From IMG/VR virus record IMGVR_UViG_3300037307_000721: 64,000 nucleotides of DNA, one strand, 5' to 3'. The DNA comes from a virus. Made by a program: the position numbers and the translations under genes. Under the pieces are notes generated by a model. The model saw only the letters and a list, made by a program, of their open reading frames with translations, was not told the DNA's origin and did not search any database. Shown here piece by piece: positions 1 to 8,346 of the stretch. How positions within the stretch are numbered: the first letter of the stretch is position 1; every line of letters starts with the position of its first letter.

Positions 1-411
1 CATCTTGGCGCCCTGCTCCTCGAGAGCCTTGGCGATGGAGAGCGCCTTCTCGGCGACCTCGCGGAACGCCGCGGCGGCCGCGCCCGCCTTCTCGATGTCG
101 ACGGCCTGGGGCTCGCCGGCGCCGGTGGTGTCCTTCTGCAGCTCCGTGACCAGAGCCCCGATCTGGGTCGTCATGCTCTCCAGAGCCGCCGCAGCCCTCT
201 CGAGCTCAGACGCCGTCTCGGGGGTGTGAAGCCCACCTTCGCCTTCGATGAGCTCCGGCCCCATGTTCTCGTTCGACATTGCGTCCTCCTTAAAGACGAT
301 GAACCTCCGCTTGTTAGCGGCTCTGTCGACTAGATCGACCTTGTAGGGTTCGATTTCACTCAGCCGTCGCTGCTTTCGACCGTCCGGCACTTTACGCGAG
401 TCAAACGGCAT
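1..411 (-). CDS. capsid scaffold-type protein, runs off window edge (partial)
   Basis: Open frame ATG411 to edge, missing from ORF track. MPFDSRKVPDGRKQRRLSEIEPYKVDLVDRAANKRRFIVFK resembles the 'V(S/D)LVDRAANKRRF' N-terminal motif of scaffold-type proteins that follow XkdF proteases; acidic Ala/Glu helical body follows. Confidence 0.7.
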   Translation of the reverse strand, partial: MPFDSRKVPDGRKQRRLSEIEPYKVDLVDRAANKRRFIVFKEDAMSNENMGPELIEGEGGLHTPETASELERAAAALESMTTQIGALVTELQKDTTGAGEPQAVDIEKAGAAAAAFREVAEKALSIAKALEEQGAKM

Positions 412-588
412 CGTCAACCACGGCCTCGTTCAGCGCAGTATAATAGAAGTGGAGGGACATTGCTAGGGTTTCTGATTACACCAATTGGCCGAGGCCGTCA
501 AGAACCTTCTGCGACTAATTCTACAGATGTCGCCGACGTCGGCTAAAGCGTCCTAAGTAGTGACGCACACTGAAGAATTACACGGAGC

Positions 589-3500
589 CTAGTCGAGGTT
601 GGCGGCGAGCGCGAAGCCCTCGATGCTCCAACCGGTGAGCCGGCCATCCTTGACAGCCTGCCAGAGCGCATCGTCCAGGACGCGCGCGGCCAGGAGCCAG
701 GTGCCCTTCTTGACGAAGTGCCCGTCGAGGTGCAAGTCCGTCGGGGCGATGTAGCTCTCCAGCACGCGGACCTTGTCCCGGGCGAGCGTGCGCTGGTGCA
801 TGAGCCCGAGACGCTGCGTCTCCTCCATGAAGTAGAACGCCGCCTTGCGCACCGATTCAGCGTCGTAGATGTCGCCCTGGCTGTCGAACTCGTCCGGGAC
901 GAGCACGACTCCGAGAACGTAGCGCTCGTCTTCCTGCTTCACGAGCTCGACCCGATGCGAGCACGCGCCGAACGACTTCGCCAGCGCGTCCGAGTACTCG
1001 TCTGCCGACTTCTTCAGCTCGCCTGAGCCGAGCATCTCGTGCACGTCCTTCAACGACGAAGGACCGCCGTCGGCCTTGTCGACGACGACGGGCGTGAAGC
1101 CACGTAGGCGCTTCTTCTCCGCGTTGGACTCGTCCCAGAGGATCTCGGTCACCTCGATTCGGATGACGTCGCCGACCTTGGCCGCGACCTTCGTGTTGAA
1201 CGTGCGGCCCGCCTTCACGTAGGTCTTCCCCGCGACCTCGACGGTCTCGGCCCAGGACCCTGCCTCCTTGCCCGACACGGGGCCAACCGCATAGAAGAAG
1301 TTGTGCACACCGGGCGAACCCTTGACCGGGTGCGCGTCCCAGATGATGCCGCGGATCTCGCGAATCATCTTGAGCTTGGCCCACGAGTCGGTCTCGCGCA
1401 GCGTGACCGTGCTCTGGCTGCTCTTGAACATGGCGCCCTCGGACCCAATGTACCGACGAGCCCATTCGATCGCCGAGCGCAGCTCCTCCTTGTTGCGGAC
1501 GAGCTTGTGCGGCACGTAGACGAGCCGTGTGAAGTCGTGCCCGCGCAGGAAGTCGCGAAGCAGCGCGTTGCGCTCCTCGAGAGGCTTCGCAACCACGTTG
1601 CCCTTCTTCGGGTGGTACAGGATGTCGAACACACGCACTCTGGCGCCCTTGTCCTCGGCCGGGGTCCGGCCGCGAAAGGTGGCCAGCTCGCGACGAGGTA
1701 CCGGGCCACCGCCCGGCTCGAGCGCCGTGAACTCGGCATCGAGGATGAATGGTCCGGGCAGCTTGTCGAGCTCCTCCTTCAATCCAGGGAGCTGGTCGAT
1801 CATGTTGGTGATCGGCGTCTTGCGATCCCAGATGTCCTCGGTGATCATCAGGTAGCGGCCGTCCTCGGTCTTCTGGATCGAGGAGCGGAAGCCGTTGAAC
1901 TTGGGCTCGACTAGGATGCCGCTCTTGAGCATCTCCGGCGTGGCGAAATCGGTGAACAGCCTATCGAGCTCGTTGGAACGGAACTCGTTCGACTCTCTGC
2001 TCGCCGTCTTCATCGGCTTGTAGATCGCGAAGGGGCGCAGCCGTTCGCGATCGTGAGTCTTGTCGTCGCCCGGCTTGATGGTCTTCGGATCCCACACCTG
2101 CACGTCGGCGATCTTCTTGCCCGAGGCCAAGGTGATGGTCTCGAGCTTCTCCGCCTTCTCGATGCCCGCGGGAAGCTCGTGCGTGTGACCCTCGGGCTTG
2201 TCGTGCGCGTGCCCACGCGCGGGCTTGACCTTGCGCCCGGAGATCTCGTGCGTGTGGTCGTCCGCCCGGCGCTCCGACCCCTCGCTGATGACGGTGTCGG
2301 TCGTCTTGCCATTGCCCTGCGCATCGACATGGAAATGGTGCGCATGTCGATGGCTTCGCCCGGCCTCACCCGTCATCGGGGCCGCCGCGCGCTGCACGGG
2401 CTCGCCCACGCCCTCGCTCTTCTCCCAGATCCAGATGGAACCCTCACCAGTCTCCTTCGTCTCGGCACGAAGCACGAGCAGGCCAGAGAGGCCCTTGGGC
2501 AAGTCCTTGCCCTTGAGCTTGAACTTCTTGAACGCCGGCCCGTCCTCGAGGAACTCGATCGAACCACGAGCCAGGACGGAGATGGACGACGGCGTGTCCT
2601 TGGTCGGATTGAGCTCGAGGCCGCCATAGGACTTGCCCGGCTCCACGTCGCCATCGAGCTTCAAGAGCTCGCCGGCGCCCGCGCCTGTCGCCATCCGATG
2701 CACACCGGAGACGCGCTGGCCCGAGCTCGGGTCCTCCAAGAGCTGGAAGTCCTCGACCTTACCTCCTCGGTCGATGAAGAGGTGGTAGAGCATCCGGCTC
2801 GGTGCGGCCCGGATGACCTGCTGGCCCTTCCAGCGCTGCCAGGACAACGTGAACGGCGCCGAGCTCACGCCCTCCGCTTTTTCTTGACAGGTGAGAGTCT
2901 CACCTGTATCGTGGATGGCGGTGGGCGGGCGAGGCATGTTGCTAGGGCTATGCCCTGTCGCCTCGGTCGGCTCGTAGAGGTAGTACTTCGTCACCACCCG
3001 GCGGAACTCGTGGTCGACCAGCTTCACGTTGCTCGGCGTGAAGAAGTGCTCGGCGACAAGGGCATCGCGAATCTGCTTGCGCTCCTTCTCGTCCTTGGCG
3101 TGCCAGTACTGGAACTCCTTGGGCACGACGGCCTTGAGCTTGGGTGGTAGGTAGGAATAGCCCTGGGGCGGGATGCGTCCGACCTCGACGGCGCGTGGCT
3201 TGAGCACCGAAGGCACCAGGTCCTTGGCGAACATGGCGACCCAGAAGGGCACGCCCTTGGGCATCTTGCGGCCGGCCTCGACCTCGGGGTCCGAGGGCTT
3301 GCCAGCCTCGGAGACCAGGAGCCGGAAGGTGAGCAGCCCGGAGAACTTGGGGTCCTTCTCGAGGAAGTACTCGTGGAAGTAGGGCGTCCGCTCGCCCCAG
3401 GTGACCCGCGGCTCGGCGAGGATCACCATGACGCCCGCCTCTTCGCGAGTCGCGCCCACGGTCCCGGGCTCGAAGGCTTCCTCTACGCCCAGCCATTGCT

Positions 3501-5982
3501 TGGGCTCGGGAGCCTTCGTGGCCGCGTAGACCCGGTTGGGCGCGTTGAAAGGCTTGTTCCAGGACGAGCCCTCGACGCTGAAGGTGGCACCGATCTTCTT
3601 GGCCTCGGGCAGGGTGTTCACGTCGGGGACCTTGCCGGCGACCTGCATGGCGAGCGTGTAGCCGATGAGATAGCCGTTGGCGGCGATGCGGAAATCGCCG
3701 TGCACGCTCTTGCCCCGGAAGTGCGCCTGCAGCACAGAGCGCATCGGCTTCTCGCTGTGCGGCGGCTTGAGGAACGGGTCCTCCTTGGCCATGAGCTCGG
3801 CGATCGGTTCGACAGGGAGGTCCGCCTCTCGCATCTCCACGATCGTCTGGTAGTCGTCGCGCCGGCGCACGACGAGGTCGTAGATGGGCACGTTGGCGGT
3901 GAAGGGACCGGCCAGGCCGCTCGCCACATCGTCATCGTCTTTGCCGATGACGCCGCCGTGGAAGGACATGCGCTGCGAGATCTCCTCCGGCATCATGCGG
4001 CCGATGCGAAACTTCACGATGTGGCTCGTGGCTGGATCGAGCGGGCCGCGAACGAGCATGTCGACGTCGTTCTTGGTCACACCGTTGTTGGCCGTCGAGC
4101 CCACGATGTAGACAAAGGGGCTGCGGAGCAGGAACTCCTTGTGAAAGTGCGGCAGGAGCTCCTTGAGCGTGAGCTCGGGGAACTCGCCGTCGCTGCCCGG
4201 ATGCACCGGGGCGTAGCGGTCGCTGGGCCCGGCCTTGTAGAGCGAGGCGAGCTGGGCCGGGTTCGGGATGGCGATGCCGCGACGCTTCAGCTCCTCCTCG
4301 ATGAAGACGATGCCGTTCTCCACGTCCTCGCGAGAGAGGCCGCCGCCCGCGGTCGTCTTGCCCTCGGCGAAGACCGTCTCGAGCAACTGCTTCGCCTGCG
4401 CGTAGAGAGCCAGCAGCACGCCATCGTCCATGCCCTTGAGCGCGTTGGGCGTGAGCCCGCGGAAGCTCATCCAGGGCTCCTCGTCCTCCGCGGGCGGGTC
4501 TTCGGCCTTCTTGAGTGCGGCGGGCAGCTCGATGACGGGACCGTAGCGACGCGAGAGGAGAGGCTTGGCGAGCTGCAGCGGCGGATCGTAGGCCGCCACG
4601 AGGTGCATCTTCATGTAGAAGACGGGGCCCTCGGTCGAGAACTCCTCCCGGGAGAACTTGTCGATGCCGGCGAGGACTTCCGCTGGCAGCTTGCTCATGT
4701 CCTCGTACTCGGCGCCCTCATTCAGGGTGATCACGCCCCAGACGTACTGGGCGCCCGCCTTGGTGGGCTGCACCTCGTTGAGCAAGAACTGGCGCTGGCC
4801 CACGCGGCCAGTGCGGCGCAGGCGAGAAAGGACGCCCGTCTCCTCGTCCGCCTTGAGTCGGCGCAGGTTGAACGCCGGGTCGGGCAGCTTCAGAGTCGGC
4901 AGTTTGCCCTTGGGCTGCTCGGCCATGGCCACCTCGACGAACGTCTCGTCCTCCCGAATGGGCTTGAGGCCCTGAGCATCCAAGATGTAGAGCGCATCGG
5001 GGGCGAGGCCGGACGGCGCCCAGTCCTTGCCGATCGTGGCGCCCTCCTGGCCGAAGCTCTCCTCGAGCTCGAGGAAGGCCTCCAGGTAGTCGATGGCGTC
5101 CTCGGTGAGAGCGAGCGCCCGGGTCTTCTCGGGCAACGAGCCGACCGTGCGATGCAGCTGCTCGAGCAGGCGCTCGGCCAGGATGAACGGGTTGCCCATG
5201 TTCACGGGCGCCGGCGCCGCGACGCCGAGCATGTCGGCGACCTCGCTGTAGGCGGCGGTCAGCATGGGCCCGATCTGCCCCAGGGCTTTGAGCAGGCGCT
5301 GGGCGTGGCCGACGGGCTCCATGAGCCTTTCGGCCTGCTCGCAGATGTCCGGCATGCGCTGGGCGAAGGCCTGCGCCAGGCCGAGCGCGCGCTGGACGGC
5401 AGCCTTCTGGGGCCGGGTCATGCCGGCGAGCTCTTCGGCCTTGGGCGAACGCTTGAAGCGCGGCTCGAGCACGAAGGTCTGTGCACCCTGCGGGGCTTCC
5501 CATGCCTTCGGCTTGTCGAAGGGCTCGAGCTCCTCGATGCGATAGGCATAGAGACGACGAGCCTTCGGCCACCACTTCTTGCGCTCCTCCTCGGTGATCT
5601 TGTGCTGCGAGCGGAGCCGACGGAATTCGGCGAGCGAGATGGGCTTGGGCTTGGCCAGCGACATCACGCCGTACACGAACTCCTTGTCGCCGAAGTAGAG
5701 CTTCTCGCCGACGACGTTGTAGACGCGCGCGTGCACGATGAGCTTCTTCGCTCCCTCCCACACGAGCTTGGCATGCGGCTCGACCAGGATACGAAGGCGC
5801 CTCGGCTTGTCGTCTGAGACCTGAGAAGTCGCCGCCAGGGGCACGTCGGCCGTCGTGATCTCGTCCTTGGCAATCTCCGCCTTGATGGCGGCCGTGCGCA
5901 CGAGCCGGGAAAGGCCTTGCAGGCCAGTCGCCAGCTGCTCCAGGCGCTTGCGAACGTCGTCTCTGCTGTTCCGTTCCATCAT
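589..5982 (-). CDS. 1797-aa polyvalent head protein: ASCH-like x2, pol-beta nucleotidyltransferase, LigD-type 3'-phosphoesterase, His-rich module, ATP-dependent ligase (adenylation+OB), XkdF prohead serine protease
   Basis: Motifs: IVGSTANNGVTKNDVD (NTase); VLQAHFRGKSVHGDFRI (LigD PE); EPKFNGFR / ILDAEF / VFDIL / EGAMFK / WAKLK (ligase motifs I, III, IIIa, IV, V); RYVLGVVLVPDEFDSQGD...GLMH...LTGWSIEG (XkdF/S78_2). Lies between portal and scaffold. Confidence 0.88.
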   Translation of the reverse strand: MMERNSRDDVRKRLEQLATGLQGLSRLVRTAAIKAEIAKDEITTADVPLAATSQVSDDKPRRLRILVEPHAKLVWEGAKKLIVHARVYNVVGEKLYFGDKEFVYGVMSLAKPKPISLAEFRRLRSQHKITEEERKKWWPKARRLYAYRIEELEPFDKPKAWEAPQGAQTFVLEPRFKRSPKAEELAGMTRPQKAAVQRALGLAQAFAQRMPDICEQAERLMEPVGHAQRLLKALGQIGPMLTAAYSEVADMLGVAAPAPVNMGNPFILAERLLEQLHRTVGSLPEKTRALALTEDAIDYLEAFLELEESFGQEGATIGKDWAPSGLAPDALYILDAQGLKPIREDETFVEVAMAEQPKGKLPTLKLPDPAFNLRRLKADEETGVLSRLRRTGRVGQRQFLLNEVQPTKAGAQYVWGVITLNEGAEYEDMSKLPAEVLAGIDKFSREEFSTEGPVFYMKMHLVAAYDPPLQLAKPLLSRRYGPVIELPAALKKAEDPPAEDEEPWMSFRGLTPNALKGMDDGVLLALYAQAKQLLETVFAEGKTTAGGGLSREDVENGIVFIEEELKRRGIAIPNPAQLASLYKAGPSDRYAPVHPGSDGEFPELTLKELLPHFHKEFLLRSPFVYIVGSTANNGVTKNDVDMLVRGPLDPATSHIVKFRIGRMMPEEISQRMSFHGGVIGKDDDDVASGLAGPFTANVPIYDLVVRRRDDYQTIVEMREADLPVEPIAELMAKEDPFLKPPHSEKPMRSVLQAHFRGKSVHGDFRIAANGYLIGYTLAMQVAGKVPDVNTLPEAKKIGATFSVEGSSWNKPFNAPNRVYAATKAPEPKQWLGVEEAFEPGTVGATREEAGVMVILAEPRVTWGERTPYFHEYFLEKDPKFSGLLTFRLLVSEAGKPSDPEVEAGRKMPKGVPFWVAMFAKDLVPSVLKPRAVEVGRIPPQGYSYLPPKLKAVVPKEFQYWHAKDEKERKQIRDALVAEHFFTPSNVKLVDHEFRRVVTKYYLYEPTEATGHSPSNMPRPPTAIHDTGETLTCQEKAEGVSSAPFTLSWQRWKGQQVIRAAPSRMLYHLFIDRGGKVEDFQLLEDPSSGQRVSGVHRMATGAGAGELLKLDGDVEPGKSYGGLELNPTKDTPSSISVLARGSIEFLEDGPAFKKFKLKGKDLPKGLSGLLVLRAETKETGEGSIWIWEKSEGVGEPVQRAAAPMTGEAGRSHRHAHHFHVDAQGNGKTTDTVISEGSERRADDHTHEISGRKVKPARGHAHDKPEGHTHELPAGIEKAEKLETITLASGKKIADVQVWDPKTIKPGDDKTHDRERLRPFAIYKPMKTASRESNEFRSNELDRLFTDFATPEMLKSGILVEPKFNGFRSSIQKTEDGRYLMITEDIWDRKTPITNMIDQLPGLKEELDKLPGPFILDAEFTALEPGGGPVPRRELATFRGRTPAEDKGARVRVFDILYHPKKGNVVAKPLEERNALLRDFLRGHDFTRLVYVPHKLVRNKEELRSAIEWARRYIGSEGAMFKSSQSTVTLRETDSWAKLKMIREIRGIIWDAHPVKGSPGVHNFFYAVGPVSGKEAGSWAETVEVAGKTYVKAGRTFNTKVAAKVGDVIRIEVTEILWDESNAEKKRLRGFTPVVVDKADGGPSSLKDVHEMLGSGELKKSADEYSDALAKSFGACSHRVELVKQEDERYVLGVVLVPDEFDSQGDIYDAESVRKAAFYFMEETQRLGLMHQRTLARDKVRVLESYIAPTDLHLDGHFVKKGTWLLAARVLDDALWQAVKDGRLTGWSIEGFALAANLD

Positions 5983-6040: not shown

Positions 6041-6481
6041 CTAGGTCGGGGTCCAGATGCGAGAGCCAGGCTTCGGTGGATCGAAGGCCTTGCCGTCGAG
6101 CTCGGCGCGAAGCGCGTGGCCCATCAGGTCGAGGGTCTGCTCGAGCGAGTAGCCGACGTCTCCACGTGCGTGCCTGATCCAGTTCTCGCAGATCTTGAAG
6201 CGGCGCTTGACCTCGCTGACGGTCGGCTTGGTGTAGCCGAACGGGTTGCGCCGGACGTCTTCGGCGAAGCTTCGCCAGATCACGCCCTCGAGCGTCTCGA
6301 AAACCCGGCGTAGGTCATCGTCGCTCTTGACCAGCGCGGCGAACGGCTTGCGGTCGAACTCGAGCTGCGGGACTCCGTCCTCGGCCAGCTTCTTGGTGAT
6401 CTCGACGCGCTCGTCCACCTTCTTCGCGCTCTCCACCTCACTCTCGACGAATTGCTCTACTGCTTCCTTTACCTCGCTCAT
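6041..6481 (-). CDS. hypothetical head-module protein (146 aa)
   Basis: ATG6481 overlaps portal stop (ATGA); C-terminal part of track ORF 6041..7366. Confidence 0.7.
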   Translation of the reverse strand: MSEVKEAVEQFVESEVESAKKVDERVEITKKLAEDGVPQLEFDRKPFAALVKSDDDLRRVFETLEGVIWRSFAEDVRRNPFGYTKPTVSEVKRRFKICENWIRHARGDVGYSLEQTLDLMGHALRAELDGKAFDPPKPGSRIWTPT

Positions 6482-8346
6482 TGAGCATCCTCCTCGGTCA
6501 GGCCGCCGCCGATGGCTTGCAACGGCGTGCCGGCCCGACGGATCTGGAGCGGCGCGGGCGCGGGCCCGCGGTTCATGTCCGCCTCGGGTGGCACGGACTC
6601 CTCCGGTTTCACCGGCACGGGGCTCGTGCCGATGCCAAGCTGATCTGGACTCGTCGCAGTGTGCAGCTGCGCCAGGATGTAGGGCAGCGGCTTGTTCGTC
6701 CACTCCTCTGCGAGGTCCTCGAACGTGCGGTTGAAGATGTCTGCGCAGAGCTCGCGCGCCTCGGAGATCATCAACACGCCGGCCTTGACCAGGTTGACGA
6801 CCATCTCGGCCATGGCCTCTGGGTCGCGCACGATCGGCGAGTTCGAGCGGAAGATCCAGAACGTGATGTCGAGCTCGGGGAAGAGCTCGCGGTTGATGAA
6901 CGAGTCGAAGTGCTCGCGCTCCGGCTCGAAGACCTGCTCCTCGGCGAACTTGAGCGCGGCGTAGGCCGTGGCGCGGTTCATCTGCTTGTCGTCGCCGCGC
7001 AAGATGCGTGGCAGGCGGAAGGCACGCGCCACCTTCTCCTCGTTGCGCACGTCGTAGTTCTGGAACAGCGCGTCCTGCAGCTGCGCGTCGCGCAGCGGTA
7101 CGAACATGACCTTGGGCACCGTGCGTGGCCCGACGTCCCCGGCGCCCTTCTGGCTCTCCGCCTCGAGGACCAGGATGCGGTGCACGCTCTTCTTGCCCTT
7201 GAGGTGCTCCTCGATGAACTCCTCGATCTTGGTGGCCACGCCCTTGCCGAGACGGCCACCGGATACGAGCAGCGCCAGTGGAGGCACGACGTTGTTCTTG
7301 AAGTAGTTGAGGTTGACCTCGTCGAGCTCGCGGCTGCCCATGACGCCGGGCAGGTTGGAGATCCACCGCGGCACACCGTAGGGCGTGTCCGGGGTGAAGA
7401 TCGCGAAGTGCGCGATCTCCGTCGCCGGCGCGACGCCGGGCTCTTTCGCCTCGAGGTCCTCGATGGACTCGTAGTACTTGCCGCTCTTCTGCGAGACCAC
7501 GCGCGGGTCGCCGAACTGCTTGAAGTAGACCGTCTTGCCGCGCGGCGCGAGCTTGACGTACCGGCGGAAGTGCTTGCGTACCTTGTAGCTCCGCCAGGTG
7601 ATGTCGGTGACCTTGGCCTTCTCCTCGACGACGATGGGCTCCTCGTCTTCCTTGAGGAGGCGCATGTTCATCGGGTTCGCGTAGTAGATGCGCGAGACCT
7701 CGCCGAGGGCGTTGCGCACGATCTCCCAGAAGGCATTGCCCAGGACTTCGTAGTCCTGGCGCGTGCGCCGTCGGAGCTCGATGAAGGAGAAGGTGGGACA
7801 GACGTAGGAGAAGAAGGCCTTGAGCCGCGAGTACTCGATGCGCGCGACGCGCCGGAGCTCCTCGATCTTGGCCCCCACCTCCTTCGGGTCCGGCGGCATG
7901 CCTGAGGCGGACGCCCCGCCCCGGTCGTGCGCGTCGAGCGCGTCCTCGTAAAGCATTGCGTCTGAGACGCGCTCGGGCGCCCCCTTGCCGGCGAGGTCGA
8001 TCGAGGGCACCAGATGGTGCCCAAACGAGTCGATGTTCGTCACGTAGGCGTCGATGTTGGGACGCAGGATGGTCGACTGCTCGTAGAGCGTGTACAACTT
8101 CTTGAAATCGTAGGGAGGAGCGAGCGCACCGCCTGGCAGGTTGCCCTCCTTCGACGCGAGGAAGTCGAGCAGCTCCGTTGTCCGGCGCTCGCCACTCCCC
8201 AGAATCTCGGCCTTGACGATGGGCGCCGGGGCCCCTCTCTTGCGAACCACTCTTCGGGTTTTAGTCGCCACCTGATAGTTCTCCCGCATTCTGGAAGGAA
8301 GTTCTGCGGCTATGATAGTTAGAGTGCTCTGGACAGTCAAACCCAT
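6478..8346 (-). CDS. phage portal protein (PBSX/HK97-like); start may be ATG8289
   Basis: LYEQS...IDAYVTNIDSFG, QDYEVLGNAFWEIVRN, GVPRWIS, NLNYFKNNVVPP motifs; head-module position. Confidence 0.92.
   Translation of the reverse strand: MGLTVQSTLTIIAAELPSRMRENYQVATKTRRVVRKRGAPAPIVKAEILGSGERRTTELLDFLASKEGNLPGGALAPPYDFKKLYTLYEQSTILRPNIDAYVTNIDSFGHHLVPSIDLAGKGAPERVSDAMLYEDALDAHDRGGASASGMPPDPKEVGAKIEELRRVARIEYSRLKAFFSYVCPTFSFIELRRRTRQDYEVLGNAFWEIVRNALGEVSRIYYANPMNMRLLKEDEEPIVVEEKAKVTDITWRSYKVRKHFRRYVKLAPRGKTVYFKQFGDPRVVSQKSGKYYESIEDLEAKEPGVAPATEIAHFAIFTPDTPYGVPRWISNLPGVMGSRELDEVNLNYFKNNVVPPLALLVSGGRLGKGVATKIEEFIEEHLKGKKSVHRILVLEAESQKGAGDVGPRTVPKVMFVPLRDAQLQDALFQNYDVRNEEKVARAFRLPRILRGDDKQMNRATAYAALKFAEEQVFEPEREHFDSFINRELFPELDITFWIFRSNSPIVRDPEAMAEMVVNLVKAGVLMISEARELCADIFNRTFEDLAEEWTNKPLPYILAQLHTATSPDQLGIGTSPVPVKPEESVPPEADMNRGPAPAPLQIRRAGTPLQAIGGGLTEEDAQ

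Follow-up and report, generated by a model that had tools for sequence, protein, structure and literature searches.

Why would a tailed phage join its head maturation protease to enzymes that heal and seal nucleic acid ends? The question is raised by one gene, here called P0001, of an uncultured phage represented by the IMG/VR virus record IMGVR_UViG_3300037307_000721 (82,418 bp, with a CheckV completeness of about 55%). In the window, by which we mean the whole stretch of 64,000 nucleotides analysed, the gene occupies positions 589–5982 of the minus strand, as an uninterrupted open reading frame of 1797 amino acids that starts with ATG and has a G+C content at third codon positions (GC3) of 0.90. 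A reading of the sequence alone had described the product as a prohead protease fused to a complete end-healing and sealing toolkit, encoded in one reading frame at the head-protease position. The single frame and its position, between the portal and the scaffold and capsid genes, are borne out, and all the domain coordinates of that reading fall on real modules. "Complete" was an overstatement, as a 5' kinase is absent. With slightly better than even confidence, we propose that the fusion to the head protease serves to bring the enzymes into the capsid and, together with the DNA, into the next host.

Modules of the polyprotein

The principal modules, from the amino- to the carboxy-terminus of the chain, are the following:

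589–5982, minus strand: whole polyprotein gene P0001 (open reading frame call; identical protein on a second contig)
3808–4170, minus strand: likely minimal pol-beta-type nucleotidyltransferase, NTase (amino acids ~605–725, with G628, S629, D639, D641 and D702; motif, weak fold matches)
3214–3759, minus strand: PE1, LigD-type 3'-phosphoesterase (PE) fold with H754, H761, D763, R765 and H870, plus Y872 (AlphaFold2, structure alignment)
2968–3213, minus strand: LNK, conserved PE1-linked extension (amino acids 924–1005; AlphaFold2 confidence of 90–97, alignments)
2407–2862, minus strand: PE2, second LigD-PE fold with the catalytic His and Asp replaced (AlphaFold2, structure alignment)
1348–1980, minus strand: adenylation domain of an ATP-dependent DNA ligase (Pfam, profile search, motifs)
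1063–1347, minus strand: beta-rich region after the ligase (amino acids 1546–1640), presumed oligonucleotide-binding (OB) domain (alignment with the carboxy-terminal region of the ANMV-1 ligase)
610–942, minus strand: XkdF-type prohead protease domain with invariant H1729 and S1786 (Pfam, PHROG, alignments)

The carboxy-terminal XkdF domain, recognised as such in the sequence-only reading, is the predicted prohead protease of the phage. Residues 1681–1791 match Peptidase_S78_2/XkdF (PF14550) with an E-value of 3e-25 (89.1 bits, against a cut-off of 24), and the domain matches head maturation protease PHROGs at 4e-32. His1729 and Ser1786, the presumed catalytic pair, are invariant in 18 sequences and again in 47 sequences. 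No other HK97-type (S78) head protease was found in the 82-kb record.

Residues 590–1200 were modelled with AlphaFold2 from an alignment of homologues, giving a predicted local distance difference test score (pLDDT) of 79.8. The model contains two domains, PE1 and PE2, both with the eight-stranded beta-barrel fold of the LigD phosphoesterases. In a Foldseek search the top seven matches all belong to LigD phosphoesterases (E 2e-6 to 2e-3), and the best unrelated chain that follows the phosphoesterases in structure alignment reaches a Z-score of only 4.3. PE1 (residues 742–923) can be superposed on PDB entry 3p4h with a Z-score of 14.6 and a root-mean-square deviation (r.m.s.d.) of 1.9 for 117 residues, and on 3n9b with a Z-score of 13.0. 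PE2 (residues 1041–1192) is closest to 3p43 (Z 15.1, r.m.s.d. 2.3 for 121 residues), followed by 3n9d (Z 13.2) and 5dmp (Z 12.2). A LigD-type 3'-phosphoesterase with a second, degenerate copy, as proposed from the sequence, is thus what the folds reveal (Z 13–15), the second copy being devoid of catalytic residues.

The six residues of the LigD phosphoesterase active site are two histidines and an aspartate on the manganese, an arginine and a histidine on the phosphate, and a tyrosine; the set H-x5-H-x-D-x-R...H is essential in the archaeal enzymes CkoPE and MbaPE, and LigD PE removes 3'-ribonucleotides and 3'-phosphates (PMC3082917). PE1 resembles the archaeal stand-alone phosphoesterases (3n9b, 3p43, 3p4h and 5dmp) in its fold and in its metal and phosphate ligands: His754, His761, Asp763, Arg765 and His870 vary little or not at all in 18 homologues, and most PE1 copies across the relatives retain the full metal and phosphate site. 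At the active-site position of PE2 the sequence reads WQRWKGQQVIR, its His and Asp residues being gone; because these residues have been lost, PE2 is probably a non-catalytic binding module.

The Pfam family LigD_N (PF13298) does not match the polyprotein or the rest of the genome at E ≤ 10. On relatives it gives sub-threshold matches of 18–29 bits (cut-off 31.1), with E-values of 4e-6 to 3e-3 for PE1 and 1e-6 for PE2, so that both copies are linked to the family at the sequence level too. PE2 furthermore gives weak PDB profile matches to 3p4h, 3p43 and 5dmp. Despite the common fold, a profile alignment (hhalign) of PE1 with PE2 is not significant. LNK, which follows PE1, is more strongly conserved than any other stretch in the family (Pro924, Pro938, Pro939, Pro946, Pro954, Trp960 and Arg972); a profile of PE1 and LNK searched against PDB sequences returned only chance matches to FGF1 (E ~0.1).

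Of the ATP-dependent ligase with OB domain that had been read from the sequence, the ligase stands. Residues 1350–1538 match DNA_ligase_A_M (PF01068) with an E-value of 6e-13 (49.3 bits, cut-off 26.2), and the profile of the region matches the PDB entries of archaeal ligases (3gde, 2e-22), LIG1 (2e-16) and Mycobacterium tuberculosis LigD (1.5e-11), with no RNA ligase among its PDB matches. Motifs I (K1361-F-N-G), III (Asp1415 and Glu1417), IIIa (VFDILY), IV (Glu1515 with Lys1520) and V (Lys1536 and Lys1538) are kept in all homologues, motif I being KxNG, not KxDG, throughout the family. The OB domain is still presumed: DNA_ligase_A_C (PF04679) has no match in the polyprotein or in the genome-wide search, and the PDB profile matches stop near the start of this region. 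The ligase is present in a single copy, as no second ATP-dependent ligase was found in the 82-kb record.

The pol-beta nucleotidyltransferase of the sequence-only reading is retained for its motif, less so for its fold, which gives a weak match. The signature hG[GS]-x9-13-DxD with a third carboxylate (Gly628, Ser629, Asp639, Asp641 and Asp702) is invariant in eight sequences, including that of the archaeal virus ANMV-1. A profile of the domain has AadA as its sole match among PDB sequences (E 1.5), with motif aligned on motif, and its language-model neighbours, which we treat as leads, are NTP_transf_2/Polbeta clusters (0.93–0.95). No Pfam nucleotidyltransferase family matches the cut segments at E ≤ 10. 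Residues ~605–725 are likely to form a minimal pol-beta NTase.

The amino-terminal part (residues 1–600) was modelled in the same way, with a pLDDT of 84.3. Together with a variable insert, it contributes these further modules:

5857–5979, minus strand: long amino-terminal helix (amino acids 2–42; AlphaFold2 secondary structure)
5476–5820, minus strand: ASCH-fold domain (amino acids 55–169; AlphaFold2, structure alignment, Foldseek)
5020–5436, minus strand: four-helix bundle (amino acids 183–321; AlphaFold2 pLDDT above 90)
4513–4920, minus strand: second beta-rich domain, possibly PUA/ASCH-like (amino acids 355–490; AlphaFold2 pLDDT above 90)
4228–4470, minus strand: small helical domain, usually preceding the NTase (amino acids 505–585; AlphaFold2)
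2167–2370, minus strand: variable His-rich insert (amino acids ~1205–1272) with four [RDG]H[AT]H motifs (alignment)

Two ASCH-like domains had been proposed. The first is supported by superposition on 2dp9 (Z 14.1, r.m.s.d. 2.0 for 104 residues), ZmASCH (5guq, Z 11.8) and YqfB (Z 10.7) and by Foldseek (E 4e-5), while Pfam ASCH (PF04266) matches neither the polyprotein segments at E ≤ 10 nor anything in the genome-wide search. The second, residues 355–490, is unproven and has leads only: PUA-like/EVE clusters (0.84–0.87) and ASCH-bearing Atlas models over residues 167–496 with template modelling (TM) scores of 0.36–0.44; its hhalign comparison with the first domain is not significant (E 0.024). 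A ferritin/Dps-like identity of the four-helix bundle was rejected, its Z-scores of 10–11 being in the range of generic helical bundles. The small helical domain co-occurs with the NTase in relatives. The His-rich module described earlier is real, though variable, as it is found in only four of about 20 homologues. In a metagenomic homologue of 2164 residues (P0012), an expanded array of nine GH[ASTK]H motifs, of the His-rich kind that occurs four times in P0001, takes the place of the ligase domain and may bind metal. Domain parsing thus relies on Pfam for XkdF and the ligase and on the AlphaFold2 folds for PE1, PE2 and ASCH, Pfam being blind to PE, NTase and ASCH; a phmmer search of the whole polyprotein against the PDB gave nothing useful.

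The same modules could be read as an RNA repair kit, acting on host tRNAs cut by anticodon nucleases or on other RNA in the manner of T4 Pnkp and Rnl1, with the NTase as a CCA-like adder and the phosphoesterase as 3' healer. The ASCH fold is confirmed, and its nearest solved relatives, ZmASCH and YqfB, act on RNA or modified cytidine; the KxNG form of motif I is family-wide, and LigD PE takes off 3'-ribonucleotides as well as 3'-phosphates (PMC3082917). However, the ligase profile fits DNA ligases and no RNA ligase, ANMV-1 has a canonical KxDG within the same module set, and no 5' kinase domain was found; without one, the ATP-dependent ligase would be unable to seal the 5'-OH termini that anticodon nucleases leave. 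The repair of host tRNAs, one of the options in the sequence-only reading, is weakened accordingly, and we consider RNA repair very improbable. A reading of the extra domains as inert filler or as an enlarged scaffold, devoid of enzymatic function, would suit the dead PE2, the variable His-rich insert and the several modules to which no function can be assigned; it is scarcely credible, given that homologues of 36–64% identity keep the catalytic residues of ligase, PE1 and NTase invariant or almost so.

Gene position and the scaffold peptide

The neighbouring genes and the peptide discussed below are located as follows:

6478–8346, minus strand: portal protein gene (phrog_12, E 2e-38)
6041–6481, minus strand: gene of 146 amino acids between portal and polyprotein genes (open reading frame call)
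1–417, minus strand: start of a scaffold-like gene (546 amino acids, Ala/Glu-rich), which extends beyond the window (open reading frame call, synteny)
289–378, minus strand: amino-terminal peptide of the scaffold-like protein (amino acids 14–43, YKVDLVDRAANKRRFIVFK), with predicted docking to XkdF (motif conservation, complex prediction)

On the minus strand the gene order is portal, 146-residue protein, polyprotein, scaffold-like protein of 546 residues and major capsid protein (phrog_1623, E 3e-75), followed by adaptor and sheath genes. Lying between the portal and the scaffold and capsid genes, the polyprotein gene occupies the expected place of a prohead protease. Synteny, a check that the sequence-only reading had envisaged for XkdF-ligase fusions, is well kept: of about 80 related loci in viruses, nearly all retain this order from portal to capsid. 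Neither the 146-residue protein nor the scaffold-like protein matches a PHROG. The gene for the former has a GC3 of 0.86 and GAGGAGGA upstream of its ATG, its start overlaps the stop codon of the portal gene, and in the default list of open reading frames it is masked by a spurious frame of 441 codons.

The first 40 or so residues of the scaffold-like protein hold a strongly conserved peptide, the remainder diverging across loci. Its consensus, rL.d..v.EVSLVDRAANKRrFLvVKR, follows XkdF in 55 of the approximately 80 loci (for instance L008:14525-14719 and L013:3103-3297). A complex of the XkdF domain, represented by a 47-row alignment, with residues 1–66 of the scaffold gene product was predicted with an interaction prediction score from aligned errors (ipSAE) of 0.86 (0.85–0.87 in the runs), the best of three controls scoring 0.00; in calibration, 58 of 80 solved complexes attained this mark, as did two of 110 mismatched pairs. 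At least 59% of the contacts are common to the runs, and the pLDDT of the partner is 47–49. Scaffold residues 14–33 are modelled against the last strand of XkdF, which holds Ser1786, and against the loop of His1729. The XkdF domain is thus predicted to bind the scaffold amino-terminal peptide, which may serve as a docking strand, as a completing piece of the protease fold or as a substrate. The predicted contact suggests a route by which the polyprotein might enter proheads.

The same peptide was also considered as a general linker cleavage motif and rejected as such, since its hidden Markov model (HMM) found no copies inside polyproteins. A different pattern, hydrophobic-x-K-[A/K/S/E/Q]-[E/D/A], was picked post hoc: eight of its 13 matches (window 590–5900, minus strand) fall in low-confidence inter-domain linkers, near residues 37, 490, 731, 1033, 1274, 1634, 1655 and 1680, examples being LKKAED, MAKEDP, QEKAEG, IEKAEK and LKKSAD. 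These matches may be candidate cleavage sites. On the opposite strand, a promoter-like TTGACA-17-TATCGT (10 of 12 positions) is located at 2884–2912 (plus strand), antisense to the polyprotein in the region of the linker between PE1 and PE2; three such sites are present, against 0.7 in shuffled sequences.

Relatives and known systems

About 18 full-length homologues with the same layout are known from the searches (36–64% identity), and a protein identical to P0001 is present on a second contig of 162 kb. An assembly artefact, against which the sequence-only reading had cautioned, is excluded, because the architecture recurs on many independent contigs. In IMG/VR, the 80 loci with XkdF proteins have varied amino-terminal parts. 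A megablast comparison of 20 kb with deposited phages gave no match. Among species-representative genomes the closest relatives are almost all Myxococcota, with the complete set of tools in one 2175-residue protein of a Myxococcales metagenome-assembled genome; prophages of cultured Myxococcus and Corallococcus have the XkdF end with different cargo, one example being an ASCH-XkdF gene of Corallococcus exercitus SDU142. The host of the phage is probably a myxobacterium.

When a profile of PE1 and LNK was searched against 1.84 billion representative sequences, clustered at 50% identity, at least 1124 clusters were found at an E-value of 1e-3, 903 at 1e-10 and 445 at 1e-30. Most of these proteins terminate in XkdF. 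Module-specific HMMs were applied to 164 relatives, a sample that leans toward the kin of P0001: LNK is present in 164, PE1 in 154, XkdF in 125, the NTase in 100, PE2 in 94 and the ligase in 83. Relatives with the ligase usually have the NTase (73 of 83) and PE2 (72 of 83), whereas these are less frequent in the ligase-free ones (27 and 22 of 81, respectively). By Pfam, 56 XkdF proteins carry Dam methylase (21), DNA ligase (10) and InPase (4), with SAM methylases, metallo-beta-lactamase, AdoMet decarboxylase, 2H phosphoesterase and a portal domain as further cargo, while a tally of 56 PE1-LNK relatives gives XkdF in 39 and the ligase in 12. Among the PE1-LNK relatives, one contains a domain of Tad3, an inhibitor of type I Thoeris, and others have LAGLIDADG/Hint inteins within the polyprotein.

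These counts bear on another explanation, in which PE1 and LNK are an anchor hub for cargo in the head, or a phosphodiesterase against host signalling nucleotides, the ligase and NTase being interchangeable cargo. LNK and PE1 are far more constant than the ligase in the sample of 164 (164 and 154 against 83), as is XkdF in the Pfam tally (39 against 12), some PE1 copies without the His motif still keep LNK, and InPase, 2H and Tad3 are among the neighbouring cargo. Most PE1 copies, however, have an intact metal and phosphate site, and PE1-LNK-PE2 remains with NTase and ligase in permuted, protease-less proteins and, in a split form, is encoded beside the ligase gene. We regard this explanation as quite improbable.

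The permuted order, NT-LIG-OB-PE1-LNK-PE2, is found in about 20 metagenomic proteins, some with an ASCH domain in front. In one locus (L083) the gene for the permuted protein has a portal-sized gene on one side and the scaffold and capsid genes on the other. On an archaeal-virus-like contig (L084:4865-9179), the kit consists of two overlapping genes, one for metallo-beta-lactamase plus ligase (1051 residues) and one for PE1-LNK-PE2 (392 residues), in the same place after a portal-sized gene. The deposited "ATP-dependent DNA ligase" of ANMV-1 (AJP62006.1, KP703175; 866 residues) shares the NTase, ligase, PE1 with LNK, and PE2 at 28–34% identity, and its gene directly follows the portal gene, as in the permuted relatives; unlike P0001, it has the order NT-LIG-PE1-LNK-PE2, no XkdF, no ASCH or helical amino-terminal part, a KxDG motif I and an archaeal host. 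The ANMV-1 gene annotated as a MutT-like phage hydrolase (L001, KP703175, 1913-3193) matches Phage_portal_3 (PF06381) with an E-value of 3e-22 and probably encodes the portal. That NTase, PE1, PE2 and ligase co-occur through permutation and fission argues for joint work, and thus for a functional link between them; their unvarying position behind the portal gene points to a function tied to the head.

Fusions of effectors to head proteins, known in general according to the sequence-only reading, are indeed described. Polyvalent proteins of phages and conjugative elements combine many disparate domains in one chain, with an assemblin-like peptidase that is always carboxy-terminal and a predicted processing during virion assembly, pol-beta NTases being restricted to the proteins of conjugative elements (Iyer et al. 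2017, PMC5512222). P0001 similarly unites disparate enzymatic and nucleic-acid-binding domains with a peptidase in one head-module polypeptide, and its relatives carry the InPase, 2H and Dam modules typical of the class; from its sequence, it is a phage-type polyvalent head protein. The ATP-dependent DNA ligase, the LigD-PE and ASCH cargo, the name XkdF and a scaffold-peptide docking such as the one predicted here are not mentioned in that description (PMC5512222).

Fusions with a carboxy-terminal XkdF (35–38% identity) behind an enzyme domain are also present in cultured phages: in the "DNA methyltransferase" of Pseudomonas phages PPSC2, VCM and phiPsa374, in PHROG 14859 ("RNA ligase") and in PHROG 1530. 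Unlike P0001, they carry methylase or 2H-type cargo; searched by tblastn, they show neither PE nor NTase nor DNA ligase.

Bacterial LigD (POL-PE-LIG), which works with Ku in non-homologous end joining, likewise combines in a single chain the PE fold (Z 13–15), an ATP-dependent ligase and a nucleotide-adding module. P0001 differs in having a minimal pol-beta NTase of about 120 residues in place of the archaeo-eukaryotic primase (AEP)-type primase-polymerase, of which no Pfam or NCBIfam match was found (TIGR02776 covers the ligase part only, with 32 bits against a cut-off of 373), two PE copies with the second inactive, an insert of about 55 residues in PE1, the LNK extension of about 80 residues, a KxNG motif I, and a gene that is located in a phage head module and fused to a protease. 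The cargo would work like LigD, with predicted activity, and we place it outside the LigD family because the pol-beta NTase replaces the AEP polymerase, an inactive PE is added, Ku was not found in the 82-kb record and LigD_N gives no match.

Proposed route into the capsid and the next host

The domains with their conserved catalytic residues, the position of the gene and the joint occurrence of the modules are directly supported; packaging, cleavage, ejection and the substrate are what we infer. The XkdF end would dock on the scaffold amino-terminal peptide, possibly being completed or activated by it, and the entire chain of 1797 residues would thereby be co-assembled into the procapsid. There the protease would mature the head and cut the chain at its disordered linkers, and the freed modules would remain in the capsid, to exit with the DNA at infection. 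In the new host, the NTase would extend or tag 3' ends, substituting for the AEP polymerase of LigD; PE1, of the Mn type and predicted to be active, would strip 3'-phosphates or 3'-ribonucleotides; the non-catalytic PE2 and the ASCH/PUA-like modules would hold the nucleic acid; and the ATP-dependent DNA ligase would seal the ends. The likely use would be the closure of nicks, the joining of genome ends or the resealing of breaks made by host nucleases, before phage genes are expressed.

Precedents for such a route are the internal proteins and Alt of phage T4 and the Dar system of phage P1, which are loaded into the prohead, are trimmed by the head protease or processed before packaging, and are delivered along with the DNA, either protecting it or reprogramming the host. 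In contrast to P0001, each is a small protein of its own that carries a targeting peptide and is not joined to the protease, and none is known to be a ligase or an end-healing enzyme.

Several observations weigh against the proposed route and the activities assigned to it. Ends cut by terminase bear a 3'-OH and have no need of a phosphoesterase. The tyrosine of PE1 (Tyr872) is at +2 from the histidine, where +4 is expected, in a comparison at pattern level, and PE1 is degenerate in some relatives (L014, L015 and L054), which have lost the His motif and kept LNK. About half of the sampled relatives have PE1 and LNK without the ligase, so PE1 does not act solely in the service of the ligase. For the NTase, the fold matches are weak (MNT antitoxins, with Z-scores of 4.3, 3.4 and 2.9, from a model with a pLDDT of 57–78), the OB domain of the ligase, with motif VI, is presumptive, and Pfam searches with the whole protein and eight cut segments (E ≤ 10) leave ASCH, NTase and LigD_N unmatched. 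Ku (PF02735) has no match in the 82-kb record, which is about 55% complete. Among 50,697 deposited phage genomes, the NTase/PE region is found only in ANMV-1. Finally, the score of the protease-scaffold complex is a model confidence, obtained from custom alignments with a poorly folded partner.

The enzymes might instead work in the producing cell, either at the prohead or within it, as a quality control of packaging in which the concatemer or the genome termini are healed and sealed wherever they have nicks or blocked 3' ends. The gene belongs to the late head operon and is adjacent to the portal gene, the protease-less forms included, a position that suits work on DNA entering the head, and the ejection assumed in the preferred reading is one that we infer. 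Against this, the fusion to the protease and the predicted scaffold tether put the protein in the shell before the DNA, where the supply of ATP is doubtful, and the cargo of sister proteins (Dam methylase, InPase, 2H and the Thoeris inhibitor domain) is sensible only in a new host. Action in the producing cell is therefore unlikely in our view, and transport of the enzymes in the capsid to the next host is the reading we prefer.

Tentatively, and with considerable doubt, this reading may be extended to a capsid-borne, Ku-independent analogue of LigD in bacterial and archaeal tailed phages, made up of the pol-beta NTase, an active and an inactive PE and the ligase and loaded through docking or completion of the protease by the first strands of the scaffold protein, which would reseal or circularise the incoming genome and thereby blunt restriction, CRISPR or nicking defences before phage genes are read.

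If packaged and injected, the enzymes of P0001 would be the first virion-borne system for DNA end healing and ligation in tailed phages, and would provide either a counter to host nucleases that precedes expression or a closure of the genome that is independent of the host. The predicted contact between protease and scaffold may represent a general rule for the entry of XkdF-type proteases and their fused cargo into proheads, which could be used for loading capsids. PE1 with LNK constitutes an unnamed branch of the LigD-PE superfamily, and its at least 1124 clusters at 50% identity imply that much of phage biology has yet to be annotated. The P0001 family itself is widespread and unannotated, with functions that are predicted.

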